Part shown: one piece after another, positions 10,695 through 43,028 of the stretch
Layout: every line of letters starts with the position of its first letter
Position numbering within the stretch: the stretch's first letter is position 1
DNA from: an uncultured Actinomycetota bacterium
GTDB taxonomy: Bacteria > Actinomycetota > UBA4738 > HRBIN12
Length of the DNA: 64,000 nt
Reading direction: 5' to 3'
Assembly (NCBI GenBank): GCA_963724415.1
Contig: CAVRUS010000011.1
Location: 256,561-320,560, forward strand
Translations under genes and position numbers: made by a program
The notes under the pieces: generated by a model
What the model was told of the DNA's origin: nothing
The model's database searches: none
What the model saw: only the letters and a program-made list of their open reading frames with translations

Positions 10695-10917
10695 AGCAGG
10701 AAACGGCAACACGGCCGTTGTGCCACGCTCTCCCCGAGCGTAGCGTGAGGCGATGGCGCTGCGCTCCCCGAACGAGATCCCCGGCCGCCCCACGAGCGTG
10801 CTCGTGCCCACCTACAGCGACAACGAGAATCCTGGGACCAAAGCCGATCACCGGCGCCTCGCGGTCGAGTGGCGGCGCCGGCATCCCCGGTGGTGGAGGC
10901 GGCTGCTCCGCCTGCGG

Positions 10918-11439
10918 TCAGTCCCTCCCGCCGACTGAGTCTCCGGACCCCTCCGGGGGCCGATCCACTTCGGGTGCGCCCATCGCTTCCAGCATCTCCT
11001 GCAGCAGGTAGCCGAGGAACTGGTAGACGCGGAACGTCTCGTGGCGGGGATCGTCCGAGGGGAAGTCCTCCTCCGTCGCCTCTTCCGTGATGTCGATCCG
11101 CGTGCCGAGCACGAGCCGCAGGTCGTTCACCACACCGACCCACGCGAGGAACTCGTCCTCGGTGAGCGCCTTGGCGTGGGCCGTGCGCTCCACCGTGTCG
11201 ATCGCCTCGAGCTTCCCCGTCCGAGGCGTGCCGCCGAGGTTGGTCTCGAACTCGAGGTTCCGCAGCGGGTCGTCTTCGTAGGCGGGAGGGAAGAGCCGGG
11301 CCACGGCCGGGTCGCTCGAGGGATCCTCCGCCGCGAGCAGGGCGCGCGACTGCTGACAGAGCTCCACGAGGAGGCCGCGCACTCCCTTGCTGAGGTGCAC
11401 GGCGTAGCCGCCGCCGTCCTGACGGAACATGGGCTCCAT
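10918..11439 (-). CDS. DUF2017 domain protein (actinobacterial ClpS-associated)
   Basis: Start moved to internal ATG 11439, which overlaps the clpS stop (ATGA). DUF2017 is the typical clpS neighbour in Actinobacteria. Confidence 0.65.
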   Translation of the reverse strand: MEPMFRQDGGGYAVHLSKGVRGLLVELCQQSRALLAAEDPSSDPAVARLFPPAYEDDPLRNLEFETNLGGTPRTGKLEAIDTVERTAHAKALTEDEFLAWVGVVNDLRLVLGTRIDITEEATEEDFPSDDPRHETFRVYQFLGYLLQEMLEAMGAPEVDRPPEGSGDSVGGRD

Positions 11440-11744
11440 CAGGTGTCCCGCTGCAGCGTCGCCCACAGGCCGTGGGCGTGGAGCCGCGCGACGTCGGATT
11501 CCGCCTTCTCACGGGGACCGGAGGAGACGACCGCGCGCCCCTTCGTATGGACGTCCCACATCAGCCGTTCGGCCTTCTCCCGCGGGTAGCCGAACAACCG
11601 CATGAACACCCAGGTCACGTAGCTCATCAGGTTGATCGGGTCGTTCCACACGATCACGATCCACGGCAGGTCGGGCTCGTTGACCTCATCCTCGCGGGGC
11701 CGCTCGACCCGCGCAGGTCTCGTCGTGGTCGTGCCGGTGCTCAC
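11439..11744 (-). CDS. clpS: ATP-dependent Clp protease adaptor ClpS
   Basis: 101 aa with the conserved ClpS core ([17 protein letters not shown]...[13 protein letters not shown]). Confidence 0.85.
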
Positions 11745-12022
11745 CGATCCCGCTCCCGCGGCTCGTCGTCGATCGACATCGTGATCGCGACCGTATCGCC
11801 GGTCTTGCGTCCGGCCGCCGCGAGCGTGGCCTTGTGGACGCCGAGGACCAAGCGTCCGCCCATCGATGCGAGGTTGCTCCGGTACTCGGTCCCGTCGAGC
11901 GTCCCGCGCACCCGGGTCATGTGCTTCGCCCCGATGCCGTCGACGAGGGAGCGGTCGACTTCCACGAAGTGCCCACCTCCACGGGCGGACTCCACCACGG
12001 CCTCGAAGCTGACACCACTCAT
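11741..12022 (-). CDS. DUF1905 domain protein
   Basis: Internal start by index arithmetic ([23 protein letters not shown]...). 4-nt overlap with the clpS start; directly follows the SDR stop. Confidence 0.55.
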
Positions 12023-21336: not shown

Positions 21337-22080
21337 CTACGCGGCCGCTTCCCAGATCGCGTTCCCCGGCGTGGCCGGCTGGGCGCCTTCGACCTCGAGC
21401 GTGATGAAGATGCGGTCGTACCGCGATCGGTCGAACGGCACCTCGACGACCGTCATCTCCGGGCGAGGGAGGAACGTCCCGGCGAAGACGAGGTCGGTGC
21501 CGTCGGAGAGCCAGATCCCGTAGACCAAGCCCGCCGGCGGCGCCGGGACGTCCTCGCCGATCAGATAGAAGCGGTCCTCGTCGGGTGCGGTGATCTCGGA
21601 GACGGGGGCCGGGCTCTCGGCCGCATCGGCACCTCCGAGCGGCGCGGTGTCGGCGCCCGGGCGCTGCGAGAACGCCAGGGCCTCGCGCAGCAGGTCGTTG
21701 CTGTCCTGCAGGTTGCCGGCCCGGAAGCCCATCGACACGGCCACGCCTCCCATCACGAGGATCGCGGCGACGCCGGATGCCACCACCGCCCACCGTCCGG
21801 GGGACTGGCGGGGGCTCGCCGGCTCGAGCTCGCGATGCAGGCGGGGCAGGAGGGTGTCCGGCGGCGGCATCGGGTCGGCGCCGAGCGCCAGGTCCGCCAC
21901 GGTCTCGCTGAACGCCGCGAGCGTCTCGCGGCATCGGTCGCAGCCGGGCACGTGCTGGGAGAGGAGACGGTCGGCTTCCGCGGCGTCGTCCCCGCTCAGG
22001 CTCCGGAGCACGTAGCCGGCGAGGAGCTCGTCGATCCGCTCGTCCTGGTGCGGGTCCGGCGGTGTTCCCGTGGTCGTCAC
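21337..22080 (-). CDS. Anti-sigma factor (RskA-like, zinc-finger type)
   Basis: N-terminal H-x3-C-x2-C anti-sigma zinc motif (HVPGCDRCRE), a single TM helix, and 4-nt overlap with the ECF sigma gene. Confidence 0.7.
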   Translation of the reverse strand: MTTTGTPPDPHQDERIDELLAGYVLRSLSGDDAAEADRLLSQHVPGCDRCRETLAAFSETVADLALGADPMPPPDTLLPRLHRELEPASPRQSPGRWAVVASGVAAILVMGGVAVSMGFRAGNLQDSNDLLREALAFSQRPGADTAPLGGADAAESPAPVSEITAPDEDRFYLIGEDVPAPPAGLVYGIWLSDGTDLVFAGTFLPRPEMTVVEVPFDRSRYDRIFITLEVEGAQPATPGNAIWEAAA

Positions 22081-22667
22081 GCGTCTCCTCGATCGTCTTC
22101 CGGATCGTTTGGGCCGAGGATGCCGCGGAGCCTGCGGAGCGCCGCGAACGTCCTCGTCTTCACCGTGCCGAGCGGGATCCCGAGATCCTCGGCGATCCGG
22201 ACCTGCGTCATGCCTCGGAAGTAAGCCATCTCGAGCACCTGGCGTTGCTCTGCGGAAATGTCCTGGAGCGCGTCCCGGACCTCGCGTCGGCGTCCGGCGA
22301 CGAAGTCCTCGTCGACGATGCGCTCCGAGTGGTCTTCGTCCTCGACCGGCTGGAGGTTCGCCGCCCGGTCGTGGCGCGCCCGGAGCCGCTCCTCGCGCCG
22401 GATCGTGTCGACCGCTCGATGGTGCACGAGCGCGAGGAAGAAGGTGCGGAACGCCCCTCGAGTGGCGTCGAACGCCTCCGGGGCGCGCCAGAGCGCCAGG
22501 AACGCGTCGTGGACCACGTCCTGGGCCAACAGCTGTTGCCCCGTGAGCCGATACGCGATCCCGTAGGCGGTCGGGGAGTAGCGGCGGTAGAGCTCGTCGA
22601 ACGCGCCGCGATCGCCCGCGGAGAGGCGCCGATGCAGCTCCAGGTCCTCAGGGTCGCCCTCTCTCAT
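22077..22667 (-). CDS. RNA polymerase ECF sigma-70 factor
   Basis: Sigma-70 regions 2 and 4 are recognisable; co-transcribed with the anti-sigma gene. Confidence 0.85.
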   Translation of the reverse strand: MREGDPEDLELHRRLSAGDRGAFDELYRRYSPTAYGIAYRLTGQQLLAQDVVHDAFLALWRAPEAFDATRGAFRTFFLALVHHRAVDTIRREERLRARHDRAANLQPVEDEDHSERIVDEDFVAGRRREVRDALQDISAEQRQVLEMAYFRGMTQVRIAEDLGIPLGTVKTRTFAALRRLRGILGPNDPEDDRGDA

Positions 22668-22698
22668 CGGCCTCGGCGCGGCACGCTACCATCGGCCG

Positions 22699-22998
22699 AT
22701 GCCGAGCCCGCAGGGACCGGACCGCGGCTCGACCCCGGGCGAGGCGCATCGAGTGGTCCTGTACACGCGGCCCGGGTGTCATCTCTGCGACGTCGCTCGT
22801 GAGGTGGTCCTGTCCCTCCGGCAGCGGTTGGGGTTCGCCTTCGACGAGATCGATATCGAGGGCGACGATGAGCTCGAGCTGGAGTACGGGATCCGGATCC
22901 CCGTGATCGAGGTCGATGGCGAGGAGGAGTTCGAGGTCACCGTGGATCCGGGGCAGCTCGCCGCATTGCTTGCCGGCCCGGAGCCACGGCGCTCGTGA
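22699..22998 (+). CDS. Glutaredoxin-like thioredoxin-fold protein (DUF836-type, CxxC)
   Basis: YTRPGCHLCD CxxC motif within a small thioredoxin fold. Confidence 0.55.
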   Translation: MPSPQGPDRGSTPGEAHRVVLYTRPGCHLCDVAREVVLSLRQRLGFAFDEIDIEGDDELELEYGIRIPVIEVDGEEEFEVTVDPGQLAALLAGPEPRRS

Positions 22999-23061: not shown

Positions 23062-23745
23062 GTGAGGGATCGGTCGATCCCCGAAGCCACGGTCGGGCGG
23101 CTGCCGCGCTACCTCCAGGCACTCGCGGGGATGGCTGCGGACGGGACCACGGTGGCGTCCTCGGAGGAGCTGGCCCTGGCCGCCGGGGTCACCTCGGCCA
23201 AGGTCCGGAAGGACCTCTCGCACCTCGGCTCCTACGGCACGCGCGGGGTCGGCTACGACATCGCGTACCTGATCCATCAGATCCGCCGGGAGCTCGGCCT
23301 CACGCAGGACTGGGGCATCGCGATCGCCGGGATCGGGAACCTCGGCCACGCCCTCGCGAACTACAAGGGGTTCGCCGACCGGGGCTTCCGCGTCTCCGCG
23401 CTGGTGGACGTCGACCCGGCCAAGGTCGGCGAGCGGGTCGGGGAGCTCGAGGTGGTGCACATCGACGACCTCCCCGCGCTCGTGGAGGACCGCGCGATCG
23501 CGATCGGCGTGATCGCGACACCGGCGACCGCCGTGCAGGACGTGGGCGATCGGATGGTCGCCGCAGGGATCCGCTCGATCCTCAACTTCGCGCCCGCTCC
23601 GCTCGTCGCCCCGCCCGGCGTCTCCGTCCGGTCGGTGGACCTGGCGGTCGAGCTCCAGATCCTGGCCTACTACGAGCAGCGGAAGGCGGCGCTCGCCGAC
23701 GTCCGGCGTCGAGGCGGGGCGGTGGCGCTCGCCCCGACGAGCTGA
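23062..23745 (+). CDS. rex: Redox-sensing transcriptional repressor Rex
   Basis: N-terminal winged helix (RLPRYLQAL) and a Rossmann GIGNLG NADH-binding motif. Confidence 0.85.
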   Translation: MRDRSIPEATVGRLPRYLQALAGMAADGTTVASSEELALAAGVTSAKVRKDLSHLGSYGTRGVGYDIAYLIHQIRRELGLTQDWGIAIAGIGNLGHALANYKGFADRGFRVSALVDVDPAKVGERVGELEVVHIDDLPALVEDRAIAIGVIATPATAVQDVGDRMVAAGIRSILNFAPAPLVAPPGVSVRSVDLAVELQILAYYEQRKAALADVRRRGGAVALAPTS

Positions 23746-23767: not shown

Positions 23768-23875
23768 CTACTTCGCGATCGTGATCCAGAGGACGACGAA
23801 GACGACCAGGATCATCACGCCGAGCAGGATGAATTGGATGCTCCCCTGATCCAGGAGCGGTACCTGACCGATCAC
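23768..23875 (-). CDS. 35-aa hydrophobic micro-protein (single TM), last gene of the b6f-like operon
   Basis: GTG start preceded by a strong SD (AGGGGAGGTGGGAGC); translation VIGQVPLLDQGSIQFILLGVMILVVFVVLWITIAK. Position at the operon end resembles small cytochrome bc/b6f subunits. Confidence 0.35.
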   Translation of the reverse strand: MIGQVPLLDQGSIQFILLGVMILVVFVVLWITIAK

Positions 23876-23909
23876 GCTCCCACCTCCCCTCGTCCTCCGT
23901 GGAGCCCCG

Positions 23910-24644
23910 TCATGCCGGTCCGTACCACGGCGGCGCCGCGCCGCCCGTGAGGAACTCTTTCCGCTTCTTCTCGGCCCTGTCCAGCAAGGGCAGATGGATC
24001 GCGAACAGGATCACCGATCCGACGAGGAACATGTAGGAGTACTTGGGGACGCTCCCTTCGTCGTGGTACAGCGACACGGTCCACAGCGGTCCTCCCTCGA
24101 GGAAGTGCGCGCGCGCGACCGCGAGCTGTGTGCCATCGGCATCCGCGAAGGAGATCGAGTCGACCGCGAAGTCGACGCCACTCACGGCCGTCGGGTCGGA
24201 CTCGGGGATCTCGAGCTCCACGTTGGCCTCTTCCGCGAGGAAGTCGCTCACGATCCCGGTCACGGATTGCACCTCGGCGGCATCCTCGCCGGGTGCGGGC
24301 TGCTCCCACGGCGCATCCGGGTAGGCCGCGAACTCCTCGTACCGGTCGCTGGTGGAATCGATCGATGCCAGGAGCGGGACCCAGGCGGGTTCCGCGCCGC
24401 GGGGGCCGAGGTTGACGGGCGTATCCGGACCCTGCGAGTAGAAACCGAACGCCCAGAGCGCCGAGAGCATGATCATCCAGCCCGAGAGCGAGACCATCAG
24501 GACCAGGTACCCCATCCATCGACCCAGGACCGCGGTCAGGAGCAGGTAGACGCTGCCCACGAACAGGGTGAGGCTCATCAGAACCACGCCGATGCCCTTG
24601 GCGAGGATGCCGCAATCGATGTTGAAGCCGAGACAGGTCTCCAT
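23910..24644 (-). CDS. Integral membrane protein (3 N-terminal TM helices plus one C-terminal), unknown function; in the cytochrome complex operon
   Basis: Internal ATG by index arithmetic, 1-nt overlap with the cyt c stop (METCLGFNIDCGILAKG...). Confidence 0.5.
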   Translation of the reverse strand: METCLGFNIDCGILAKGIGVVLMSLTLFVGSVYLLLTAVLGRWMGYLVLMVSLSGWMIMLSALWAFGFYSQGPDTPVNLGPRGAEPAWVPLLASIDSTSDRYEEFAAYPDAPWEQPAPGEDAAEVQSVTGIVSDFLAEEANVELEIPESDPTAVSGVDFAVDSISFADADGTQLAVARAHFLEGGPLWTVSLYHDEGSVPKYSYMFLVGSVILFAIHLPLLDRAEKKRKEFLTGGAAPPWYGPA

Positions 24645-25354
24645 CACGGATCCCTCGGGTTCGGGCCGCTCGGGTTCTCGAGCGCCGCCGCGGATGCTTC
24701 CTCGTTCAAGCAGACGTTCTGCTCGAAGGGCACGTTCTCGGACGAGAGCTCGACGAGATAGACGACGATGTCGTTGATCTGTTGGTCGTCGAGCGCGCCC
24801 TCGTACCGGATGCTCCAGGACGGCATGCCGTTCTCGATCCTGCCCTCCCGGATCACCTGGTAGATGTCCTCCGTCGAGTAGATCGCGGCGTGCCCGGTGT
24901 TCGGGCCCCCGCAGATGGTGGAGAGGTTCGGCGGGAACGCGAACCCGTCCCGCAGCGGGATGATGCCCCCGGTCAGCTCCGGCCCGTGGCACCGGACGCA
25001 CCCGACGCCGAGCTGGTTCTCCTCCGAGAACGGCAGGACGGCGCGCGCCCCGCGGTCGAGGGCGAGCTCCTTCAGCTCTTGCTCCTGGTTCAGGTTCGTC
25101 GACGGCTCGAAGATCCACGTGGCCGGGATCCAGATCACGAAGAACGCCAGCATCACGACGCTCCACCCCTGGAGCTTCTGGAGCAGCGGCGTCTCGAGCG
25201 CGGCATCCGAGGGACCCGGCCGGAGGGCCTCGGGGATGTCGGGCCCCGTCTCACGGGTCCGCTGCCGGAGCGCGAGGCCCGCGACCGCGGCGACGGCGAT
25301 CAGCCCGCCGACGATCAGGAGAACGACCCCTGCGGTGGTCGAGAGTGCGAGCAT
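24644..25354 (-). CDS. Membrane-anchored monoheme cytochrome c
   Basis: Internal ATG by index arithmetic; N-terminal TM helix; single CxxCH (GCVRCHG). Confidence 0.75.
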   Translation of the reverse strand: MLALSTTAGVVLLIVGGLIAVAAVAGLALRQRTRETGPDIPEALRPGPSDAALETPLLQKLQGWSVVMLAFFVIWIPATWIFEPSTNLNQEQELKELALDRGARAVLPFSEENQLGVGCVRCHGPELTGGIIPLRDGFAFPPNLSTICGGPNTGHAAIYSTEDIYQVIREGRIENGMPSWSIRYEGALDDQQINDIVVYLVELSSENVPFEQNVCLNEEASAAALENPSGPNPRDP

Positions 25355-25379
25355 CGTTCCCGTCGCCCCTATGCCTTCC

Positions 25380-26111
25380 TCATCCTGGCGCCACGCAGAA
25401 GGCGCCTTGCGGCGGCTGGTCGATCGTGTCGGTCCCTCGCGCGGGGCCGAGGACCACCTCGGACGTGTCGACCAGCACGCGCCCGCCGACGATCTCCATG
25501 TGGAACCGGTCCATGCCGCGAGGCGCCGGCCCGAGCTGGTACTCGCCCGCCGAGTTGTACTTCGAGCCGTGGCACGGGCACTCGAACCACTTCGACTGGC
25601 CGCAGAACGGGACGCGGCACCCCAGGTGCACGCACCGCTGGTAGAGCGGCATGATGCCATCACTCGTCACGCCCTCGGCCGCGTAGTCGGCGCCCCCATT
25701 CGGTGTGCCGTTGTACGGCACCACGTAGAAGCGGCCGGTCCCCACGTAGAACGGCTCGCCGGAGCTGACGGCGGCTTTGATCTCCGCGAGGTCGCCGGCA
25801 TCGATCAGGGCTCCGAACCCGCCCTTCAGGCTGGGCCACAGGAACGCGACCGAAGCGCCTCCGAACTGCGCGCCGAACACGAGGAGCGACGCGATCAGGG
25901 ACTTGCGGAAGAAGTCGCGGCGCGAGACCGCGGGGGGGCGGCTCGTGGGCGGAGGCAGCCCCGCGGCTTTCGCCTGCGACGCGGCGACGGCCTCCTGCTG
26001 CCGATTGTACGAACGGAGCGAGACGACGAAGAACGAGATCGCGAAGATCAAGACCGCGACCAGGGCCGCGATCGCGGCCACGAGCCCGGCGGATGCGGCG
26101 AGGGTGCTCAC
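25380..26111 (-). CDS. Rieske [2Fe-2S] iron-sulfur protein
   Basis: Rieske boxes CVHLGC and CPCHGS; internal Tat-like SRRDFF after an N-terminal TM helix; GTG 26111 forms a GTGA overlap with the upstream gene. Confidence 0.8.
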   Translation of the reverse strand: MSTLAASAGLVAAIAALVAVLIFAISFFVVSLRSYNRQQEAVAASQAKAAGLPPPTSRPPAVSRRDFFRKSLIASLLVFGAQFGGASVAFLWPSLKGGFGALIDAGDLAEIKAAVSSGEPFYVGTGRFYVVPYNGTPNGGADYAAEGVTSDGIMPLYQRCVHLGCRVPFCGQSKWFECPCHGSKYNSAGEYQLGPAPRGMDRFHMEIVGGRVLVDTSEVVLGPARGTDTIDQPPQGAFCVAPG

Positions 26112-26686
26112 AGGTCGAAGAACACCCCTTGCGCCCACGGCCAGACCCAGTTGTAGCCGGGGCCGCGGAAGAAGGAGCCGATGATCGTCAGCACGGCGCC
26201 GAACATGAACAGCACCGTGAACATCGTGAGCGCGATCTTCCGGTCACCGGGACGCGTGCTCGGGTTCCGATCGACGAAGGGGACGGCCGCCAGGCCGATC
26301 AAGATGAACGTCGGGATCGAGATCCCGGCCACCATCGGATGGAAGTAGCGGAGCAGCTCCTGGAGTCCGAGGAAGTACCAGGGAGCCTTCGAGGGGTTCG
26401 GCGTGAGGTTCGCGTTCGCCAGCTCGCGGAGCGGCGCGTTCAGGAACGTCGAGAACACCACGAGGCCGACGGAGAGCACGAACATCGCGACGAACTCTTC
26501 GAGCAGCAGGTGGGGCCACACGTTGACGCGGTCACCCTGCTCGCGCTCGACCCGCTGGATCCCCTCCGGCGGCACGAGCGCGAGGAGCCGGTGCTTCTCC
26601 GGCGCGCCCTTCTTGGGGGTCGGGATGTTCCCCGTCGGCAGCGGGGCCGTGCGCGTCGGAGCGCTCACGGGCGCCGCCGCGACCAT
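26108..26686 (-). CDS. Cytochrome b6-f subunit IV-like protein (C-terminal half of a split cytochrome b)
   Basis: PetD/QcrC-type motifs (NVWPHLLLEEF, PWYFLGLQELLRYF); start at internal ATG 26686 by index arithmetic. Confidence 0.75.
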   Translation of the reverse strand: MVAAAPVSAPTRTAPLPTGNIPTPKKGAPEKHRLLALVPPEGIQRVEREQGDRVNVWPHLLLEEFVAMFVLSVGLVVFSTFLNAPLRELANANLTPNPSKAPWYFLGLQELLRYFHPMVAGISIPTFILIGLAAVPFVDRNPSTRPGDRKIALTMFTVLFMFGAVLTIIGSFFRGPGYNWVWPWAQGVFFDL

Positions 26687-26952
26687 CGCGGCCTGAGCGG
26701 TGCTGCCGCCGGTGCTGCTCCCACAGCCGCGGGCGTCTGTGCCGGGGCACCGCCGTTGCCGTCTGTGGCAGCCGCGGCCGGAGCGGGTGCGGCAGCTGCT
26801 GCCTCCTCCTCGGGATGCGCGGCCTTGTAGGCGCGGACCGCCGCCGACCGGGCACGCCCCTCGGCGACGCGCTTGTCGGTGCCGGCGTCCAGCTGCTCCT
26901 TCAGGACGCGGTCGAAGACCTCCTGGTCGAGCGGGGTGTCCTCTCTCGCCAT
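26665..26952 (-). CDS. Hypothetical 95-aa ORF between the cytochrome b6 and subunit IV genes (Ala/Pro-rich tail); possibly a frameshifted N-terminal extension of subunit IV
   Basis: In a different frame from subunit IV and overlapping its start by 22 nt; the N-terminal 50 aa look protein-like, the rest is low-complexity. Confidence 0.2.
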   Translation of the reverse strand: MAREDTPLDQEVFDRVLKEQLDAGTDKRVAEGRARSAAVRAYKAAHPEEEAAAAAPAPAAAATDGNGGAPAQTPAAVGAAPAAAPLRPRWSRRRP

Positions 26953-26961
26953 CGCCGTCTC

Positions 26962-27732
26962 CTAGAGGGGTCCCGAGATCCCGCCGTCCTTGCGGATCCG
27001 CCAGAAGTGGACCGCCAGGAACAGCACCAATACGAACGGCAGCGCCAGCACGTGGAGGACGTACCAGCGGAGCAGCGTCTCCGGTCCGACGACGACGCCG
27101 CCGAGCAGCACGATGTTGAACTGCTTCGCGATGAACGGTGAGTACCCGGCGAGCGAGGTCCCGACGGTGACCGCCCAGATCGCGAGCTGGTCCCACGGCA
27201 GCAGGTACCCGGTGAACGACAGGCCGAGCGTGAGGAACAGCAGGACCACGCCGACGACCCAGTTGAACTCCCGCGGGGGCTTGTACGCGCCGGTGTAGAA
27301 GACCCGCGCCATGTGCAGCGTCACGCTGAAGACCATCAGGTGCGCACCCCAGCGATGGAGGTTGCGCACGAAGTCCCCGAGGAACACCGTCGTGCGGATC
27401 CCCTGCATGTCCGTGTACGCCTGCGCGCCGCCGATGTCGGCCATCGGCCGGTAGAAGAACATCAGGAAGATGCCGGTGATCGTGAGGAGGATGAACAGGA
27501 AGAAGGAGAGGCCCCCGAGGCAGAACGTGTAGGTCAGTTTCAGCCCGTGCCGTTTCACCTTCACCGGGTGGAGGTGGTACAGGACGTTGTTCATCGTCGC
27601 GAGGGCGCGATCGCGCGACGTGTCCTTGTAGCCCTTCCGGAAGATCGAGCCCGGCCGGAAGATCGACTTCCAGACCTCTGTCTCCCGGAGACGGTCGCCG
27701 AGCTCGCTCGGCGACGGGGGCTTCAACTTCAA
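26962..27732 (-). CDS. Cytochrome b6-like protein (N-terminal half of a split cytochrome b)
   Basis: TTG start after GAGAGGGGGAA; heme-ligand helices ([10 protein letters not shown]...FFYRP...HRWGAHLMV...). Confidence 0.8.
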
Positions 27733-27760
27733 CGCGTTCCCCCTCTCGCAGCCGGCGCGA

Positions 27761-28156
27761 TCATTCCTCCGCCGCCTGGGACGTCGGGACCTCGGCCATC
27801 GTGCGCCTGCCGCCGGAACCCTCCGGCAGCCGCGCATAGTACAGGGTGTCCGTCGGGCACCGGTCCACGCACACGGAGCACCGCGTGCAGGCGTTGTCGT
27901 CGACCACGAAGATCGCCGTCGAGTTGTGCACCTCGGCCCCCGACGCCGGTGTCTCGGCGCCCTCGACGATGTCCGGAGCCAGCATGTAGATGCAGTTCCA
28001 CGGGCAGACGTCCTCGCAGGCGCGGCACAGGATGCAGTTGTCGGGGTCCAGCATCAGGTGCTTCGGGGACTTCACGCCCTCCGCGAGCCACGCGGGGTCG
28101 ACGGCCTCCAGCGTGTAGTCCTCGTGGATGTCGACCTCGGTCTTGGTGAACGGCAT
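27761..28156 (-). CDS. 2[4Fe-4S] ferredoxin-domain protein
   Basis: Two CxxCxxCxxxCP clusters ([12 protein letters not shown] and [12 protein letters not shown]). Confidence 0.75.
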
Positions 28157-28168
28157 CTTCCCGGCCTC

Positions 28169-28609
28169 CTACCGGTACCCACCGGTGGGGCGAACGTCTC
28201 CGGACTGTCCGCGGAGCCTGCGGCGCCAGTTCTGCAGGACACCCGCGACGACGAGCACGATGACGACCGGCATGGTCGTGAGGCCCATCGCGATCGCGTC
28301 ACGCAGCATCAGGAGTCCCTCCTGGGAGAGCCACAGGAACGAGCCCTTCGAGAAGAAGGCGCCGCTCGTGTTGAACGGGTCACGCAGGAACGCCTCGAGG
28401 TCGGTCGGTCCCTGCCACCCGAGGATCTGCTCGGCGTAGTACATCCACCACGACGCGACCACCGCGCTCATGATCAGCAGGAAGAACAGGAGCGCCAGCG
28501 AGAACAGGACCGCGCTCGTCCACGACCACTCGAAGTCCCGCAGGAACGACTCCACATGGCGCTTGACGGTTCGGATCGGCGATCTGGTTGCGGTGTCGAC
28601 CTGGCTCAT
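28169..28609 (-). CDS. Small membrane protein (2 TM), first gene of the cytochrome complex operon
   Basis: Internal ATG 28609 by index arithmetic (MSQVDTATRS...); hydrophobic helices. Confidence 0.45.
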   Translation of the reverse strand: MSQVDTATRSPIRTVKRHVESFLRDFEWSWTSAVLFSLALLFFLLIMSAVVASWWMYYAEQILGWQGPTDLEAFLRDPFNTSGAFFSKGSFLWLSQEGLLMLRDAIAMGLTTMPVVIVLVVAGVLQNWRRRLRGQSGDVRPTGGYR

Positions 28610-28692
28610 GCGCTCGCTTGCTCCATGGGCGGGCGAATCATACAACCGGGCCTCGGAGGGCCTCGCGTCCCGGCTCGGCCCCCGCCTCCCAC

Positions 28693-28710
28693 TCGTGAAG
28701 GTTTTCACGA
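28693..28710. promoter_or_regulatory. Rex-type operator palindrome TCGTGAA-GGTT-TTCACGA in the divergent intergenic region between the b6f-like operon and ccdA
   Basis: Perfect inverted repeat matching the Rex operator consensus TTGTGAAnnnnTTCACAA; rex is encoded in this window. Confidence 0.6.
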
Positions 28711-28784: not shown

Positions 28785-29567
28785 ATGCTCGGGGCACTGG
28801 TAGAGACGGGACTCTCGTCGTGGTGGGCGCCGGCCCTCGCGTTCGCGGCCGGTGTCGTGTCCTTCGCGAGCCCTTGCGTCTGGCCCCTGGTCCCGGGCTA
28901 CGTCTCGTTCGTGACCGGGAGCCGGGCGGCCGAAGGAGAGGGGCGGCGCCCACTCGTGCCGATCCTGCTGTTCATCCTCGGGTTCACGATCGTCTTCACC
29001 CTGCTGGGGGCGTTCGCCGGCACGTTCGTCCCGCTGTTCCGGGGTCCCTGGTTCCAGCGGGTGGCCGGGCTCTTCGTGCTCCTGCTCGGCCTCTTGATGA
29101 TCGGCTACGCGTTCCGGATGGGGTCGCCCGGCCTGTACGCGGAGCGGCGGCCGCTGCTCGAGCGTGTGCGCATCGGCGGGGCCGGCGCGCTCCCGCTCGG
29201 GGTCGCGTTCGCCGCCGGCTGGACCCCCTGCATCGGGCCGGTGCTCGCGGGGATCCTCGCGATCGCCGCGACCGGAGGTTCGATCAAGGGTGCCGCCCTC
29301 CTCGCCGTGTACTCGCTGGGCCTCGGCGTCCCGTTCCTCCTCGTGGGCCTGGGCGCCGACCGGCTCGTGGCGAGCCTCGGATGGATCCGGCGACACTACC
29401 GGGGGATCGCCGCTGTCTCGGGGGCGTTCCTGGTCGCGGTCGGCGTCCTGCTGATGACGGGACTGTTCACGGCAGTTCTTCGGCCCGCTCGCGCGGTTCG
29501 CGCCCGGGTTGTAGCGCGGGTGCCATGGACGGGTGCGGAGGGGCTCCCTAGCATCGGGGCGCGATGA
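28785..29567 (+). CDS. ccdA: Cytochrome c-type biogenesis protein CcdA (DsbD-like thiol-disulfide transporter)
   Basis: SPCVWPLVPGY motif and multi-TM profile; ATG 28785 by index arithmetic (alternative GTG 28752). Confidence 0.8.
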   Translation: MLGALVETGLSSWWAPALAFAAGVVSFASPCVWPLVPGYVSFVTGSRAAEGEGRRPLVPILLFILGFTIVFTLLGAFAGTFVPLFRGPWFQRVAGLFVLLLGLLMIGYAFRMGSPGLYAERRPLLERVRIGGAGALPLGVAFAAGWTPCIGPVLAGILAIAATGGSIKGAALLAVYSLGLGVPFLLVGLGADRLVASLGWIRRHYRGIAAVSGAFLVAVGVLLMTGLFTAVLRPARAVRARVVARVPWTGAEGLPSIGAR

Positions 29568-31108
29568 CGACCCCGTCCGGCCCCACGGTTCGCCAGTCGG
29601 TCGCCCTCGTCTGGCGCAACCTGCGCTCGATGCGCACGGCGTTGATCCTCCTCCTGATCCTCGCCGCGGCCTCGGTGATCGGGTCGCTCCTTCCCCAGAT
29701 CCCGAACTCGCCCGAGCGGGTGGGACGGTATCTCGACGACCACGGCGCGTGGGGGACCTTCCTCTTCCGAGCCGGCTTCCTCGACGTGTACGGGTCCTGG
29801 TGGTTCGTCTTGATCACGACCCTGCTGTTCGTCTCGCTCGCCGCGTGTCTGTTCCCGAGGACGCGCGCCCTCCTCCGCGCCCTGCGGCAGCGGCCGATCC
29901 ATGCGCGCGAGCTGGATGGGTTCCTCCACCACGCGGAGCTCCGGGTGGGAGCCACCCCCGACGAGGCCGCCGCAGGCGCCGCCCGCTACCTACGGCGGAA
30001 GCGGTTCCGTGTCTCCCGGCAGGGCGGCGCGGTGGCCGCGGAGAAGGGTGTGCTCCGTGAGGTCGGGAGTCTCCTGTTCCACGGCGCGTTCTTCCTCCTG
30101 CTCGTCGGCGTGATCGTGGGGAAGGGGACCGGGTTCACCGGTCGTGCCGTCGTCACGGAGGGCGAGACGTGGGTCGACGCGCGGGTCAACTATGCCGGCG
30201 AGATCCGCACCGGCCGCTACTTCGGGGGCGCGCACACCGGGATGGGGATCGAGCTCCTCGACTTCGACGACAGCTACCGCCGCAACGGGCTGCCGATCGA
30301 CTTCGTCTCCCGCGTCCGCTTCCTCGACCGAGACGGTCGGACAGCGGATCTCGAGGAGATCAGGGTGAACCACCCCGCGAGCCGGGACGGCCTCCGCATC
30401 TTCCAGGAGGGATTCGGCTGGGCGCCGGTGGTCACCGCCTCGCTCGACGGCACGCCGATGTGGTCCACACCGATCGACATGACGCGGGACCAGGCGCCGG
30501 AGGGCGTCCCGGGGACCGCGATGCCATGGCGAGGAGCGATCAAGCTGACCGCCCCCGATCCTGACGTGATGATCACGCTCGAGCTCTGGTCGGACTACCG
30601 GGCGTTCGTCAACCTCCAGCTCACCGGCGAACCCACGCCGATGCTGGTGCAGTTCGACCCGTTCATCCGCTACTCCGTCTACGTGGGCCGGATCCTCGAC
30701 CCGGCGCGGTCCTCGGTCGACCCGACCGGGATGCGGCGTGTGGCGCGCGGAGACCTCCACGCGGCCGGCACCGCGCACGCCGACGTGGCGGGCGTGGGGG
30801 ACCTCACGCTGTCCTTCCCGGAGCTCCGGCAGTACTCGGTCCTGTTGATCAGCCGCGACGTCGGCATCCCGGCGGTGCTCGCCGCCGCTATCCTCGTTCT
30901 CGTGGGACTCATCCCCGCGCTGTACGTCTCCCGGCGGAAGGTCTGGGTCCGAGCGGAGGCCGCCCCCGGCGGCACGCTCGTGAAGATCGGCGGCTTCGCC
31001 CTGCAGCGGAAGGAGTCCTTCGACGAGGAGTTCGATCGGATCGTGCGAGCCGTCGGCGGGCTCGAAGGAGCCGCGCCGCACACGGAGGAACGGGTGGGGA
31101 CGTCGTGA
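29564..31108 (+). CDS. resB: Cytochrome c biogenesis protein ResB (Ccs1)
   Basis: 514 aa with ResB architecture; ATGA overlap with ccdA. Confidence 0.85.
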   Translation: MTTPSGPTVRQSVALVWRNLRSMRTALILLLILAAASVIGSLLPQIPNSPERVGRYLDDHGAWGTFLFRAGFLDVYGSWWFVLITTLLFVSLAACLFPRTRALLRALRQRPIHARELDGFLHHAELRVGATPDEAAAGAARYLRRKRFRVSRQGGAVAAEKGVLREVGSLLFHGAFFLLLVGVIVGKGTGFTGRAVVTEGETWVDARVNYAGEIRTGRYFGGAHTGMGIELLDFDDSYRRNGLPIDFVSRVRFLDRDGRTADLEEIRVNHPASRDGLRIFQEGFGWAPVVTASLDGTPMWSTPIDMTRDQAPEGVPGTAMPWRGAIKLTAPDPDVMITLELWSDYRAFVNLQLTGEPTPMLVQFDPFIRYSVYVGRILDPARSSVDPTGMRRVARGDLHAAGTAHADVAGVGDLTLSFPELRQYSVLLISRDVGIPAVLAAAILVLVGLIPALYVSRRKVWVRAEAAPGGTLVKIGGFALQRKESFDEEFDRIVRAVGGLEGAAPHTEERVGTS

Positions 31109-32055
31109 GCGCTGAGCAGATCTCGAACACCGCGTTCGACGTCACCCTGTGGCTCTACCTGGGGGCGATGGTCCTGTCCTTCGCCTACCTCGCGGCCCGG
31201 CGCGAGGTGCTCTGGCGGCTCGCCAGGGTGGTCGCGATCGCCGGCGTGACGGCGAACCTCGTGTCGATCGTCGCGCGGGGCGTGGCGGCGCAGCGCGTGC
31301 CGTGGGGCAACATGTTCGAGTACTCGACGGTGCTCGCGTTCCTCGTGGTCCTCGGGACCCTCGTGTTCGTCGAGGGCATCGCGAAGATCAAGACCCTCAC
31401 CGGTTTCTCGCTGATGTTCGCGGTCTTCACCCTCGCGATCGCGGCGATCTTCTTCCCGGTGGAGCCGAGCCCGCTGCAGCCGGCGCTGAACTCGTACTGG
31501 ATCAAGATCCACGTCGTGGCCGCGATCACCGGGTCGTCGCTCTTCGCGATCGGCGGGATCGCGACGATCCTGTTCCTGATCAAGGACCGGTCGGAGCGGC
31601 GGGCGCTCGCGGGTCTCCGCGAGCGCCAGCCGGCGCCGATCATGGGCGGCGCGATCGAGGTCGATGCCCCCCACGACCTCCTCCCGGATCCCGAGGGATC
31701 CGGGAGTGCGACCCCCGAGGCCGGGCGCGGCGGCGTCCTGCCGTCCGCCGCCGCCCTGGACCGCGTGGCCTACCGGGTGATCGCGTTCGCGTTCCCGATC
31801 TGGACGTTCGCCGTGATCGCCGGCGCGATCTGGGCGCAGGACGCGTGGGGCCGCTACTGGGGATGGGACCCGAAGGAGACCTGGTCGTTCGTCACGTGGA
31901 CGATCTTCGCCGGCTATCTCCACGCTCGATCGACGGCGGGGTGGAAGGGTCGTCGCGCGGCGGTGATCGCCGTCGTGGGGTTCGTCTCGCTGCTGATCAC
32001 GTACTACGCGGTGAACCTATGGATCGTCGGACTGCATTCCTACAAGCTCGGATGA
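31105..32055 (+). CDS. resC: Cytochrome c biogenesis protein ResC/CcsA
   Basis: Tryptophan-rich WGRYWGWDPKETW motif; GTG start overlapping the resB stop. Confidence 0.85.
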   Translation: MSAEQISNTAFDVTLWLYLGAMVLSFAYLAARREVLWRLARVVAIAGVTANLVSIVARGVAAQRVPWGNMFEYSTVLAFLVVLGTLVFVEGIAKIKTLTGFSLMFAVFTLAIAAIFFPVEPSPLQPALNSYWIKIHVVAAITGSSLFAIGGIATILFLIKDRSERRALAGLRERQPAPIMGGAIEVDAPHDLLPDPEGSGSATPEAGRGGVLPSAAALDRVAYRVIAFAFPIWTFAVIAGAIWAQDAWGRYWGWDPKETWSFVTWTIFAGYLHARSTAGWKGRRAAVIAVVGFVSLLITYYAVNLWIVGLHSYKLG

Positions 32056-32144: not shown

Positions 32145-33249
32145 GTGCGGAAGAGGGTGCTCTGGGCGACGGCCGCGATCGGCCTCCTCCTCCTGTTGAG
32201 CGCCTGCGCCCCCGACGCGACGCAGGACACGCTCCAGCCCAAGGGTCCCTATGCGCAGCTGCTGAAGGATCTGTTCGTCCCCGTCTTCTGGGTCGCCGTG
32301 GTCGTCTTCATCGTGGTCGAGGGCGGCATCGTGTGGATCACGATCCGCTTCCGCCATCGCAAGGGTCGCGAGCGCATGCCGGCGCAGATCCACGGGAACA
32401 CGCGCCTCGAGATCGCGTGGACGATCGCGCCCGCGCTGATCCTGGCCGTCGTGATGGTGCCGACGGTCGCGGTGATCTGGGATCTCGCGCGCAAGCCGCC
32501 CGAGGATGCCCTGAACGTCACCGTCGAAGGCTTCCAGTGGTGGTGGGGCTTCAAGTACACCGACGAGGACATGCGGACGGGCTACGGCGAGGGCGCGCCG
32601 ATCCGCACGGCCGACGTCCTGGTGATCCCCGAGGACCGTGTCGTCTACCTCTCGCTCGAAGCCGCGCGGGGGAGAGATCCAGGGGGACGATCCCGCCGCC
32701 TCGGACTACATGGTGATCCACTCCTTCTGGATCCCGGAGCTGGCGGGCAAGCAGGACGTGGTGCCCGGCAGGACGAACCACATCCTGATGCAAGCGGACG
32801 ACCCCGGCGTGTACACGGGCCAGTGCGCCGAGTTCTGCGGTCTCCAGCACGGTCGGATGCTCGTGCGGGTGGTCGCGCTCTCGGCCGAGGACTGGGACGC
32901 ATGGGTCGAGAACCAGAAGCGCACCGCGGTCATCCCGACCGATCCGCTCGCCCGGCAGGGGATGGACCTGTTCCTCGGACCGCTCTCGGGTGGTCGTGGG
33001 TCCTGCATCAACTGCCACGCCGTGGGCGGAACGGATGCCGTGAGCCAGGCCGGGCCCGAGCTGACCCACTTCGCCGACCCGACCCACGAGTGCTTCGCGG
33101 GGTGCAACTGGGAGGTGACGGATCGCGAGGCGCTGGAGGCCTGGCTCCGCGATCCGAACGCGGTGAAGCTGGGCGCGAAGATGCCGGACTACGACCTGAC
33201 CGAGCGGGAGATCGACGCCCTCGTGGCGTACCTCGAGAGCCTGACGTGA
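32145..33249 (+). CDS. ctaC: caa3-type cytochrome c oxidase subunit II with a C-terminal cytochrome c domain; +1 frameshift in a G5 run near 32668-32672
   Basis: GTG start gives a lipoprotein signal (MRKRVLWATAAIGLLLLLSAC). CuA site (HSFWIPEL, CAEFCGLQHGRM) and CINCH heme motif lie in the second frame (track ORF 32638..33249). Alternative ATG 32052 overlaps the resC stop. Confidence 0.75.
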
Positions 33250-41730: not shown

Positions 41731-41748
41731 TTGTGAAAGGTTTCACGA
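41731..41748. promoter_or_regulatory. Rex-type operator TTGTGAA-AGGT-TTCACGA upstream of the geranylgeranyl reductase-nuo operon
   Basis: Near-perfect match to the Rex consensus TTGTGAAnnnnTTCACAA; shares a 16-mer with the site at 28693. Confidence 0.6.
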
Positions 41749-41780: not shown

Positions 41781-43028
41781 GTGCCCGAGCGGATCGAGAC
41801 CGACGTGTTGATCGTCGGCGCCGGCCCAGCTGGATCGGCGGCGGCATACCACCTCGCCCGTCACGGCATCGACGTCCTCGCCGTCGACAAAGCGACGTTC
41901 CCGAGGGAGAAGGTCTGCGGCGACGGCCTGACGCCCCGGAGCGTCGGCGCCGTCGAGCGGATGGGCATCGACACCTCGGATCCGGGCTTCGAACGCGTGA
42001 TCGGGCTCCGCGTCTATTCGAAGGACGTCACGATGGACCTGCCGTGGCCGGAGCTCCAGTCCTGGCCGAACTACGGCCTCGTGATGCCACGCCTCGGGTT
42101 CGACCATCTCCTGCTCGAGCGCGCGAAGAAGGCGGGTGCCCGCGTGCTCGAGGCGACCGATGCCCGCGGGCCGATGATCCGTGACGGCTGGGTCGTGGGG
42201 GCCGAGACCGTGCCCGCCGGTGAAGGGGACCGCGAGCCGACCGAGATCCACGCTCGGTTCACGATCGCCGCCGACGGGGCCGCGAGCCGCTTCGGTGCTC
42301 CCGCCGGCGTCCGCCGCGACGACACCCGACCGCTCGGGATCGCGGCCCGCCGGTACTACCGCGCGCCGAACCTCGGCGGGCCCTGGTTCGAGTCGTGGCT
42401 CGACCTGTGGGAAGGCGACATGCTCCTGCCCGGCTACGGGTGGCTCTTCCCGATGGCCGACGGCCGCGTCAACCTCGGCGCCGGCCTCCTCAGCACGTTC
42501 CGGAACTTCAAGGACATCTCGGCTGCGCGCCTCTTCGCGGCCTTCGCCACGATGCTCCCCGAGGACCGCGGGATCTCCGAGGAGACCGCCGACGGCCGCA
42601 TGCTGTCCGGGCCGCTCCCGATGAGCATGAACCGCGCCCCGCAGGCCGTCCCCGGGATGCTCGTCGTGGGCGACGCCGCCGGCGCGGTGAATCCGATGAA
42701 CGGCGAGGGGATCGCGTACGCGATCGAGACGGGGGAGATGGCCGCAGAGCTCCTGCACGAAGCGCTCGTCAAGGACCGACCCGGCCTCGCGATGGTCTAT
42801 CCGCAAGCTCTGCGCGAGCGGTACGGACGCTATTTCCACCTCGGCCGTGGCTTCGCCAAGCTCGTCGGCAAGCCCGAGATCATGGGGCCGGCCACGAAGT
42901 ACCTCCTGCCCAACCCGAAGGTCATGGGGTTCGCGATGCGGATGATGGCGAACCTGACCGACGGCAGGGACGGCGACGCGCAGGACAAGCTCTTCTACAT
43001 CCTCGAGAGGTTGGCGCGCGCGTCGTGA
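41781..43028 (+). CDS. Geranylgeranyl reductase-family FAD-dependent oxidoreductase (MenJ-like menaquinone/polyprenyl reductase candidate)
   Basis: GxGxxG FAD motif (VGAGPAGSAAAY) and GDAAG; translationally coupled (GTGA) to nuoA. Confidence 0.75.
   Translation: MPERIETDVLIVGAGPAGSAAAYHLARHGIDVLAVDKATFPREKVCGDGLTPRSVGAVERMGIDTSDPGFERVIGLRVYSKDVTMDLPWPELQSWPNYGLVMPRLGFDHLLLERAKKAGARVLEATDARGPMIRDGWVVGAETVPAGEGDREPTEIHARFTIAADGAASRFGAPAGVRRDDTRPLGIAARRYYRAPNLGGPWFESWLDLWEGDMLLPGYGWLFPMADGRVNLGAGLLSTFRNFKDISAARLFAAFATMLPEDRGISEETADGRMLSGPLPMSMNRAPQAVPGMLVVGDAAGAVNPMNGEGIAYAIETGEMAAELLHEALVKDRPGLAMVYPQALRERYGRYFHLGRGFAKLVGKPEIMGPATKYLLPNPKVMGFAMRMMANLTDGRDGDAQDKLFYILERLARAS

Follow-up and report, generated by a model that had tools for sequence, protein, structure and literature searches.

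What kind of Rieske/cytochrome b complex is encoded by an actinobacterial operon in which the cytochrome b is split in two and a ferredoxin gene lies directly in front of it? This question is raised by a locus from an uncultured Actinomycetota bacterium (assembly GCA_963724415.1, contig CAVRUS010000011.1), which was analysed as a window of 64 kb with a G+C content of about 70%. Rieske/cytochrome b complexes are textbook two-port enzymes: quinol is the way in, and cytochrome c or plastocyanin the way out. The operon in question (23768-28609, minus strand) probably encodes a menaquinol:cytochrome c oxidoreductase (complex III) of the b6 type that falls in the APWY clade and has eight products, among which the ferredoxin would be a bound electron port on the cytoplasmic face of the membrane (the n face).

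Relatives of the cytochrome b6 were collected by a scan of one genome per GTDB species, which gave at least 589 confirmed matches. Unless stated otherwise, the locus counts given below refer to the best 80 of these matches, in which the b6 is 85-99% identical to that of the window; all 80 come from metagenome-assembled genomes (MAGs) of uncultured Actinomycetota or 'Actinomycetes'. Protein families were assigned by searches of Pfam, NCBIfam and the sequences of the PDB, and transmembrane (TM) helices were predicted from hydropathy. Homologue searches with the b6 and the ferredoxin of the window returned close relatives within the same lineage as their top 120 matches. The wider diversity of b6 was sampled from representatives of clusters at 50% identity, among which the nearest sequences from outside the lineage are 55-64% identical. 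Two of the outside clades were examined, one from Planctomycetota (L081 and L083) and one from Chloroflexota that carry the FCLGG motif described below (L086-L165).

The operon and its conservation

The coding regions of the operon abut or overlap, with GTGA or ATGA at the junctions, and this is consistent with eight genes that form one operon. A previous inspection of the DNA, referred to here as the sequence-only reading, had listed nine linked genes. The coding regions that it named are all found on the minus strand where it placed them, and the cluster is real, but the genes number eight, since the 'linker ORF' counted among the nine is an artefact.

Gene order is collinear in every sufficiently long locus among the 80. 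The ferredoxin gene is found in all of them, the gene for the small membrane protein tmA in 78 and that for subunit IV in 68, followed by the genes for the Rieske protein (66 loci), cytochrome c (65), a second membrane protein, tmB (62), and a peptide of 35 amino acids (60). Given collinearity in all loci that are long enough, together with invariant cofactor motifs, the operon is genuine, far beyond chance. It is also common in uncultured Actinomycetota.

Whether relatives commonly carry the same operon under an established name was a concern of the sequence-only reading, and it is borne out in part: the operon is collinear in the best 80 of at least 589 matches. The names given to its products in public databases are generic or misleading. 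JGI uses 'quinol-cytochrome oxidoreductase complex cytochrome b subunit', and the NCBI pipeline has assigned 'selenite/tellurite reduction operon b-type cytochrome ExtP' and '4Fe-4S binding protein' to relatives.

Cytochrome b6, subunit IV and the acceptor branch

The third gene (26962-27732, minus strand) encodes a b6-like cytochrome of 256 amino acids (Pfam Cytochrome_B, E 1.9e-40). Its haem ligands are His126/His140 and His227/His242, with spacings of 14 and 15 residues; these histidines are invariant in the alignment and are also conserved in 16 diverse representatives. The motif for haem ci, FCLGG, is present with Cys71, and TFCLGG occurs in 80 of the 80 loci, so that haem ci would be attached to b6 at this cysteine. 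The protein has an N-terminal extension of about 35 residues with a conserved His53, which lies 18 residues upstream of Cys71 and is a histidine in 13 of the 16 representatives. In the complexes of anammox bacteria, an extra haem b between the monomers has been predicted with AlphaFold3, with a histidine ligand in the N-terminal extension of b6 (PMC12954380), and His53 is a candidate ligand for such a haem. The C-terminus is also of the b6 type. The closest solved structures are the b6 proteins of chloroplasts and cyanobacteria (E 1e-42), with actinobacterial QcrB far more distant. No second gene for a cytochrome b or a Rieske protein was found in the 64 kb.

Subunit IV is encoded by the fourth gene (26108-26952, minus strand; Pfam Cytochrom_B_C), which yields a protein of about 280 amino acids once a frameshift has been corrected. 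It has three TM helices and the Qo motif APWY, which stands within SKAPWY in all 68 loci. The frameshift accounts for the supposed linker. In 53 of 63 loci, the 95-residue 'linker ORF' (26665-26952) and the subunit IV reading frame are a single open reading frame of 275-305 codons. Compared with the intact genes of two relatives (L004 and L046), one base is missing from the window at about position 26698, and the other insertions and deletions sum to multiples of three. The 'odd linker ORF' was rejected as a gene: it is the 5' part of the subunit IV gene, severed by a deletion of one nucleotide. Nearly all of the loci in which subunit IV is broken in this way come from MFD-labelled MAGs. The coxII gene of the window (32145-33249, plus strand; COX2_TM, COX2 and a fused cytochrome c domain) is likewise split, near 32640-32690, and is intact in a relative, where it encodes 398 amino acids. 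Since coxII is frameshifted too, both breaks are likely to be assembly indels.

The corrected subunit IV starts with a conserved domain of 48 residues, followed by a tether of 45-75 residues rich in alanine and proline, a segment APLPTGN..KHRLLALVPPEG and the three TM helices. The first 48 residues (MAxEDTPLDQ..DRRVAEGRARSAAVRAY; 26803-26952, minus strand) have a matching region in 54 loci. Profile searches found no credible relative of this domain in Pfam or the PDB, and it was not detected in subunit IV of the Chloroflexota. It might recruit a cytoplasmic partner.

The acceptor side is formed by the next two genes. The fifth (25380-26111, minus strand; Pfam Rieske) encodes a Rieske [2Fe-2S] protein of 243 amino acids, counted from a GTG codon that overlaps the stop codon of subunit IV. 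The protein consists of a TM helix, a twin-arginine translocation (Tat) motif SRRDFFR, a second TM helix and the Rieske domain, with the cluster boxes CVHLGC and CPCHGSKY. Of 66 loci, 63 keep the second box and 58 the Tat motif. The second and fourth residues after CxCH have been proposed as a guide to the redox potential, a serine-tyrosine (S-Y) pair being the mark of a high midpoint potential (PMC4122944), and the S-Y signature predicts a high-potential Rieske protein here, at more than +260 mV. The sixth gene (24644-25354, minus strand; Pfam Cytochrom_C and Cytochrome_CBB3) encodes a membrane-anchored monohaem class-I cytochrome c of 236 amino acids, which has two TM helices at its N-terminus and CVRCH as its only haem motif; CxxCH is present in 63 of 65 loci.

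The four histidine ligands, the split between b6 and subunit IV, the CxGG motif and the Rieske boxes CxHxGC and CxCH are the features of a b6-type complex. On its motifs, the complex falls within the 'APWY clade' of Rieske/cytochrome b complexes. It has APWY at the Qo site, a split cytochrome with a CxGG motif (FCLGG, a variant of WCMGG) and an S-Y signature in the Rieske protein. As described by Kao and Hunte in 2014, this clade mostly carries WCMGG and has Rieske proteins of Mid+ to high potential with S-F or S-Y (PMC4122944). It was found in delta-Proteobacteria, Chloroflexi, Nitrospirales, Planctomycetes, some Firmicutes and a few deep-branching Actinobacteria, and none of its members had been characterised by 2014 (PMC4122944). 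Group A2 of Baymann, which holds complexes 1 and 2 of Kuenenia, appears to equal the APWY clade, judging from their overlapping membership.

The sequence-only reading had proposed a split, b6-type Rieske/cytochrome c complex, accompanied in the operon by a ferredoxin and additional membrane proteins. This is supported by the family searches, with matches to the Pfam models Cytochrome_B, Cytochrom_B_C, Rieske and Fer4. The arrangement had also been called atypical for the phylum. It is indeed not a conventional qcrCAB, but the wording was too strong, given that a split cytochrome b with APWY and CxGG was reported from deep-branching Actinobacteria in 2014 (PMC4122944). As a phylogenomic observation, the split of b6 and subunit IV in Actinobacteria is not new; the new element is the ferredoxin.

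A ferredoxin upstream of cytochrome b6

The ferredoxin (gene 2; 27761-28156, minus strand; Pfam Fer4, E 5e-13) is a protein of 131 amino acids with two [4Fe-4S] clusters and is of the NuoI-like type. Its two CxxCxxCxxxCP motifs are separated by an insert of 37 residues, and the best NCBIfam model is NuoI. Since it has neither a signal peptide nor a TM helix, it is expected to be cytoplasmic. The gene lies directly upstream of b6 in 80 of the 80 loci, and both cluster motifs, with their eight cysteines, are kept in 78 of them. Across these loci, which stand for different species, the ferredoxin is 73-95% identical. Its closest paralogue within the window is NuoI2 (61131-61634), the product of a second, partial nuo cluster.

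A similar operon is found in Chloroflexota, in 80 loci (Candidatus Limnocylindrales, by their NCBI names) that were obtained from a metagenome scan. The b6 of these loci is about 60% identical to that of the window and has FCLGG. The gene order is the same as in the window: an iron-sulphur module, b6, subunit IV (APWY) and the Rieske protein (CPCHGSRY). In the Chloroflexota, however, the gene directly upstream of b6 encodes a GltD-like iron-sulphur flavoprotein of 614 amino acids (Fer4_20 and Pyr_redox_2), which matches the NCBIfam model 'NAD(P)-binding protein' with 419 bits. All 68 Chloroflexota loci in which the DNA upstream of b6 is available gave a match to this flavoprotein, and in about 42 of them it is nearly complete. 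At its C-terminus it has a domain with two [4Fe-4S] clusters, whose motifs are separated by an insert of 37-39 residues, as unusually long as that in the ferredoxin of the window. This domain and the ferredoxin of the window are each other's best match (BLASTP E 1e-14; hhalign probability 98.9%, E 2e-17).

The ferredoxin is best read as the stand-alone form of a module that links cytoplasmic redox chemistry to the n side of b6. Because it is homologous to a module of an NAD(P) flavoprotein that is likewise encoded upstream of b6, in an arrangement that resembles the anammox complexes, it is probably an electron port on the cytoplasmic side. The suggestion of the sequence-only reading that the complex might be linked to ferredoxin gains support from this kinship with the dicluster module of the GltD-like protein. 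In the literature searched, with most papers in subscription journals outside its reach, no report was found of actinobacterial Rieske/cytochrome b operons that encode a ferredoxin subunit, nor of the kinship with the GltD fusion of Chloroflexota, the three small membrane proteins or the tethered domain of subunit IV.

The outside clades show further combinations of such genes. In one of the Chloroflexota loci (L103), the flavoprotein (5160-7004) is accompanied, 3' of the Rieske gene, by a cytochrome c-cupredoxin fusion (9234-10298) and a membrane-anchored protein with Kelch repeats (10316-12001). NAD(P)-linked Rieske/cytochrome b complexes may be widespread outside the anammox bacteria. Some of the metagenomic contigs contain an orphan b6 of the FCLGG type with no adjacent gene for a ferredoxin, subunit IV or Rieske protein (L146, 7001-7729; also L111, L124 and L143); in L146, it is flanked by a PadR-like regulator and argininosuccinate synthase. 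In the two Planctomycetota loci (L081 and L083), the order is a HEAT-repeat protein, the Rieske protein, b6, a subunit IV of 361-388 amino acids (APWY) and a multihaem cytochrome c of 1361-1534 amino acids. One of these Rieske proteins (L081, 5857-6918) has an N-terminal ferredoxin-like domain of the Fer4_13 type, with a single cluster, which is cytoplasmic and precedes the Tat motif; this was counted in favour of the ferredoxin as a component of the complex.

Accessory membrane proteins

The three remaining products of the operon are small membrane proteins. Gene 1 (tmA; 28169-28609, minus strand) starts at a conserved ATG at 28609 and encodes 146 amino acids with two TM helices, the motifs FEWTWT, PSFW and RDAIAMGL, and an invariant C-terminal tail, QNWRRKLRG..RPTGGYR. 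In one relative (L085), it has been called as a gene of 143 codons. Gene 7 (tmB; 23910-24647, minus strand), conserved in 62 loci, encodes 245 amino acids. The sequence-only reading had given it four TM helices; hydropathy gives three. It has a nearly invariant pair of cysteines near the N-terminus (C5 and C12), an acidic loop of about 130 residues that is predicted to be extracellular, and an invariant C-terminal tail, ..LLDRAERKRKxFLTGGxAPxWYGPA, predicted to be cytoplasmic. The single-sequence AlphaFold2 model of tmB is poor, with a predicted local distance difference test score (pLDDT) of 51.5. In profile searches, tmA had no relative in Pfam, NCBIfam or the PDB, and tmB had none in Pfam or the PDB. 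The conserved cytoplasmic tails of tmA and tmB might contact the ferredoxin.

The last gene of the operon (gene 8; 23768-23875, minus strand) encodes a peptide of 35 amino acids with a single TM helix (..PLLDQGSIQFILLGVM..WITIAK). It was found in 60 loci with an identity of 48-97%, and 59 of these 60 share its terminal ..TI[AS]K and the stop that follows. It matches no family, and has been called as a gene of 39 codons in L085. No homologues of tmA, tmB or this peptide were detected at the Chloroflexota loci.

Genomic context and candidate Rex control

The operon is flanked by a gene for a redox-sensing repressor and by a long series of respiratory genes. The rex gene (23062-23745, plus strand; Pfam Put_DNA-bind_N and CoA_binding), for the NADH/NAD+-sensing repressor, converges on the operon and lies 22 nucleotides from its end; it has the same position in 59 loci. 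On the other side, and divergent from the operon, are the genes of the System II pathway of cytochrome c maturation, ccdA (28785-29567), resB (29564-31108) and ccsA (31105-32055), all on the plus strand (Pfam DsbD_TM, ResB and Cytochrom_C_asm) and conserved in 66-77 loci. They are followed by a caa3 oxidase (CoxII with a fused cytochrome c, CoxI and CtaG; Pfam COX2 with Cytochrom_C, COX1 and Caa3_CtaG), haem A synthase and a polyprenyl synthase. Further along come a gene like that for geranylgeranyl reductase (MenJ-like; 41781-43028), nuoA-N and the second, partial nuo cluster. The arrangement of this respiratory island is conserved in 56-77 of the 80 loci. A comparison of gene neighbourhoods had been suggested by the sequence-only reading across several actinobacterial classes; as carried out here, it covers the best 80 Actinomycetota loci, in which the operon and the flanking island are conserved.

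A palindrome that resembles a Rex operator, TCGTGAAAACCTTCACGA (TCGTGAA-AACC-TTCACGA), is located at 28693-28710, about 85-100 nucleotides upstream of gene 1, in the intergenic region between the operon and ccdA-resB-ccsA, which are transcribed divergently from it. The palindrome agrees with the consensus that experiments have established for the Rex operator (ROP) of Streptomyces, TTGTGAANNNNTTCACAA (PMC5355995). The core, GTGAA-N4-TTCAC, occurs twice in the window, with 0.01 occurrences expected. In 63 of the 80 loci, it is found exactly once and at the same place; the half-sites and the flanking T and A are fixed, and the spacer varies. The core is absent from the 80 Chloroflexota loci (617 kb). 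The second site in the window, the near-perfect TTGTGAAAGGTTTCACGA (41731-41748), lies 35 nucleotides upstream of the geranylgeranyl-reductase-like gene in front of nuoA; in Streptomyces, the nuo operon is among the validated targets of Rex. Taken together, the sequence gives good support to control of the operon by Rex. A GTGAA-N4-TTCAC site is also present just upstream of the HEAT-repeat gene in the Planctomycetota locus L081 (4665-4678).

Some further features of the window were recorded. Beyond rex (21337-22998) are genes for a glutaredoxin-like protein (DUF836), an extracytoplasmic function (ECF) sigma factor and a putative anti-sigma factor, found in the same place in 56-57 loci; these may belong to the same redox-responsive regulatory neighbourhood. 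The partial nuo-like cluster (58765-64000, plus strand) comprises nuoA2, B2, C2, H2, I2, J2, K2 and L2, with no D, E, F or G between C and H. An Rfam scan of the window gave no matches. No sigma-70 promoter was found, in a scan that is uninformative at 70% G+C.

Electron flow and alternative explanations

How might such a complex work? Menaquinol would be oxidised at a Qo site built by b6 and subunit IV, with its APWY motif. One electron would pass to the high-potential Rieske protein, then to the membrane-bound monohaem cytochrome c and on to the cytochrome c domain of the caa3 oxidase. The other would reach haem ci by way of haems bp and bn, and so cross the membrane. The ferredoxin, bound on the cytoplasmic (n) face, would wire the bn/ci end to a cytoplasmic partner and so provide a third port besides Qi. 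Exchange between the ferredoxin and haems bn and ci may involve an extra haem between the monomers, as predicted for the anammox enzymes. Expression would be repressed by Rex and released when the NADH/NAD+ ratio rises. For this scheme, we infer menaquinone as the quinone, the redox potentials, the binding of the ferredoxin, the direction of flow and the binding of Rex. The polyprenyl synthase, the geranylgeranyl-reductase-like gene and nuoA-N, which are also encoded in the window, were counted in favour of a menaquinol:cytochrome c oxidoreductase with a bound ferredoxin port.

In which direction would the port run? Menaquinone has a potential of about -75 mV. With a Rieske protein near +300 mV, the second electron would end up at about -450 mV, and after the membrane potential has been paid for, this electron could reach clusters at about -300 mV. 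The flow would then be outward, as quinol-driven bifurcation that gives a low-potential electron to the cytoplasm, in the way proposed for anammox. On this thermodynamic argument, which is the same as that made for the anammox enzymes, outward flow is tentatively favoured if the port is functional, with a probability somewhat short of even; inward flow comes next, and a non-catalytic role after that.

In the case of inward flow, the ferredoxin would take electrons from reduced ferredoxin (2-oxoacid oxidoreductases) or from an NAD(P)H flavoprotein and deliver them to haem ci or the Qi site, where menaquinone would be reduced. The complex would then be a respiratory analogue of the postulated ferredoxin:plastoquinone reductase activity of b6f. 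Such a role is possible, if rather on the unlikely side. It would suit the invariant haem-ci motif, since electrons from ferredoxin have been proposed to enter b6f at haem ci (PMC5600118), and the flavoprotein fused to the Chloroflexota module binds NAD(P)(H) and could equally be a dehydrogenase. Control by Rex would, in addition, tie expression to an excess of NADH. However, for the oxidation of NADH the window already has a full type I NADH dehydrogenase (NDH-1) and the second nuo-like cluster, and entry of NAD(P)H at Qi would waste energy, as has been argued for the anammox complexes (PMC12954380). The combination of a predicted high-potential Rieske protein with menaquinol also fits the need for extra driving force on the low-potential branch, which tells against an inward port. 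A non-catalytic ferredoxin would leave an ordinary Q-cycle complex III. The ferredoxin would then carry no catalytic flux and be what is left, in a structural or vestigial form, of a GltD-like module that has been lost, or else serve as a redox sensor. The setting among genes for cytochrome c maturation, caa3 and nuo, as expected of a plain aerobic chain, the absence of the flavoprotein part and the lack of a partner gene nearby would all agree with this. Nevertheless, the eight ligating cysteines are kept in 78 of 80 loci at 73-95% identity, which argues for a retained redox function, and the lineage has gained a conserved, tethered domain of subunit IV that the Chloroflexota version lacks. 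An ordinary Q-cycle enzyme of this kind is considered quite improbable.

Other explanations concern the identity of the complex or the role of its accessory proteins. The products tmA, tmB and the 35-residue peptide, and possibly the ferredoxin, might be factors for assembly or maturation, with a role, for example, in the step that attaches haem ci covalently at the cytoplasmic face. In favour of this, the genes for cytochrome c maturation lie next to the operon in divergent orientation, and tmA and tmB have conserved motifs rich in tryptophan and conserved cytoplasmic tails. It was counted on the same side that the Chloroflexota relatives, which likewise keep FCLGG, have no detectable counterparts of these proteins. 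Against it stands the lack of similarity to CCB1-4/YGGT or other families. Moreover, b6f and the actinobacterial III-IV supercomplexes typically have small single-TM peptides and extra TM proteins at their periphery, and the translationally coupled junctions suggest synthesis in roughly equimolar amounts. A role in assembly is judged unlikely.

A selenite or tellurite reduction module of the ExtP/ExtQ type is suggested by annotation: ExtP is the best curated NCBIfam model for b6 (285.1 bits against a cut-off of 290), and relatives carry its name. This is highly improbable, as the multihaem cytochromes, porin and rhodanese are all absent from the operon and its flanks, ExtQ scores 55.6 against a cut-off of 150, and the context is one of cytochrome c oxidase and NDH-1. 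As a functional assignment, ExtP was ruled out by gene content, and the name is a nearest-model effect of the similarity to b6. A misassembled or pseudogenised conventional qcrB had also been raised as a possible source of the split. The window does hold frameshifts, in subunit IV and coxII, but 68 loci from independent assemblies share the boundary that separates b6 from subunit IV, including a stop codon and a separate start, the C-terminus of b6 is of the b6 type, and the QcrB_actin model reaches 111 bits where 500 are needed. This explanation is refuted.

Several points weigh against a bound ferredoxin port itself. In sequence, the ferredoxin is only moderately closer to the Chloroflexota module (36-39% over 74-80 residues) than to the NuoI paralogues in the window, and with so modest a margin the connection between the two leans on synteny. 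The alignment is confined to the dicluster core and does not extend to the N- and C-terminal extensions. A GltD-like gene or other obvious partner is absent within 7 kb in the 80 loci and across the 64-kb window, and the AlphaFold2 model of the ferredoxin, built from 36 close homologues, is unusable (pLDDT 39.8). Ferredoxin-b6 'fusions' of about 400 amino acids in the databases (P0002 and P0247) were rejected as frameshifted gene calls with a garbled second cluster motif; pseudo-fusions of this type could mislead surveys of domain architecture. The predicted high potential of the Rieske protein has a two-residue rule as its basis. Finally, conservation within an operon is no proof of a stoichiometric place in the complex for the ferredoxin, tmA, tmB or the peptide.

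Implications

It is tempting to speculate that these abundant aerobic soil Actinomycetota carry out menaquinol-driven bifurcation, with the second electron passing through bp, bn and ci, and perhaps through an additional haem between the monomers, into the bound ferredoxin. The downhill electron, on its way through a Rieske protein at about +300 mV, cytochrome c and caa3 to oxygen, would pay for the reduction of the ferredoxin. This proposal is a long shot, of low probability. If it is true, respiration would directly generate a low-potential reductant in the cytoplasm and, together with the GltD fusion of the Chloroflexota, 'three-port' Rieske/cytochrome b complexes would be a widespread class and not a peculiarity of anammox bacteria.

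Two ideas have lacked tractable examples, namely the transfer of electrons from ferredoxin to haem ci in cyclic flow and the bifurcation to NAD(P)H in anammox. An iron-sulphur module on the cytoplasmic side is conserved and encoded within the operon in two very abundant lineages of soil and freshwater, as a stand-alone protein in the Actinomycetota and as a GltD-like fusion in the Chloroflexota. If the module is redox-active, the operon would offer a simpler system than anammox, with a monohaem cytochrome c and an aerobic context, in which to ask whether electrons can be exchanged between the low-potential chain and the cytoplasm. The operon is, in short, a simple and widespread candidate for a three-port Rieske/cytochrome b complex. 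The analysis also corrects the spreading annotation 'ExtP, selenite/tellurite reduction', and adds four families or domains that are new to the libraries searched: tmA, tmB, the 35-residue peptide and the tethered domain of subunit IV.

Comparison with known systems

Similar to the operon described here, ExtOPQ of Geobacter (Rieske protein, cytochrome b and membrane protein) has a split, b6-like cytochrome and falls in the same broad clade. The ext cluster (extHIJKLMNOPQS), however, is defined by the multihaem cytochromes ExtKL, M, N and S, the porin ExtI and the rhodanese ExtH (PMC5877670), and has no ferredoxin.

The bcc complex typical of the phylum (QcrCAB, in III2IV2 supercomplexes) shares with the operon the presumed role of a link between menaquinol and an aa3-type oxidase that needs no soluble cytochrome c, as well as a Rieske protein with an extra N-terminal TM helix before an internal Tat motif. 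It differs in its unsplit QcrB of more than 450 amino acids, with PDWY and no CxGG, and in its dihaem QcrC. The split cytochrome b and single CxxCH of the operon are matched by low scores for the corresponding models (QcrB_actin 111 bits against 500; QcrA_actin 20.8 against 275).

The b6f complex of cyanobacteria and chloroplasts has the same four histidines, the cysteine of CxGG, a subunit IV with three TM helices and small single-TM subunits (there PetG, L, M and N). An interaction of ferredoxin or FNR with the n side of b6f has long been proposed. The association of ferredoxin with b6f is transient, whereas the operon of the window encodes a ferredoxin of its own. The operon also lacks cytochrome f and detectable PetG, L, M or N; its acceptor is a monohaem class-I cytochrome c, its small proteins have no Pfam match, its Qo motif is APWY and not PEWY, and its quinone is presumed to be menaquinone and not plastoquinone.

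The b6c complexes of Firmicutes (QcrABC of Bacillus and Geobacillus, PetABCD of heliobacteria) are similar in their use of menaquinol, the split into b6 and subunit IV, the CxGG motif, the class-I cytochrome c and the Gram-positive host (PMC4122944, PMC5600118). Their gene order is Rieske, b6 and subunit IV, their Qo motif is PDWY or PEWY, and their Rieske protein has a low potential. The cytochrome c is fused to subunit IV in Bacillus and is dihaem in heliobacteria, and there is no ferredoxin gene.

The anammox complexes of Kuenenia stuttgartiensis (Kuste4569-4574 and Kustd1480-1485) also have a b6-like cytochrome b of four helices with a separate subunit IV, a high-potential Rieske protein that works with menaquinone, and an iron-sulphur module on the n side. 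Their n-side modules are NAD(P) oxidoreductases with chains of iron-sulphur clusters, the potentials of their Rieske proteins have been measured at more than +300 mV, and they have been proposed to make NAD(P)H through quinol-driven bifurcation (PMC12954380). They carry a full FAD/NAD(P) oxidoreductase, hexa- or octahaem cytochromes c, an HAO-like protein and a subunit IV with five TM helices. The operon of the window, in contrast, has a ferredoxin of 131 amino acids, a monohaem cytochrome c, a tethered subunit IV with three TM helices, three small membrane proteins and an aerobic (caa3) context; of the n-side oxidoreductase, it has only the dicluster module; a search of the window, and of up to 7 kb around the operon in the 80 loci, found no FAD/NAD(P) flavoprotein.

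The operon of the Chloroflexota differs in its GltD-like fusion and its cytochrome c-cupredoxin acceptor, and none of tmA, tmB, the peptide, the tethered domain of subunit IV or the Rex operator was detected there. It nevertheless resembles the operon of the window in gene order, in a b6 of about 60% identity with FCLGG, in APWY and in the homologous dicluster module that is encoded directly upstream of b6.

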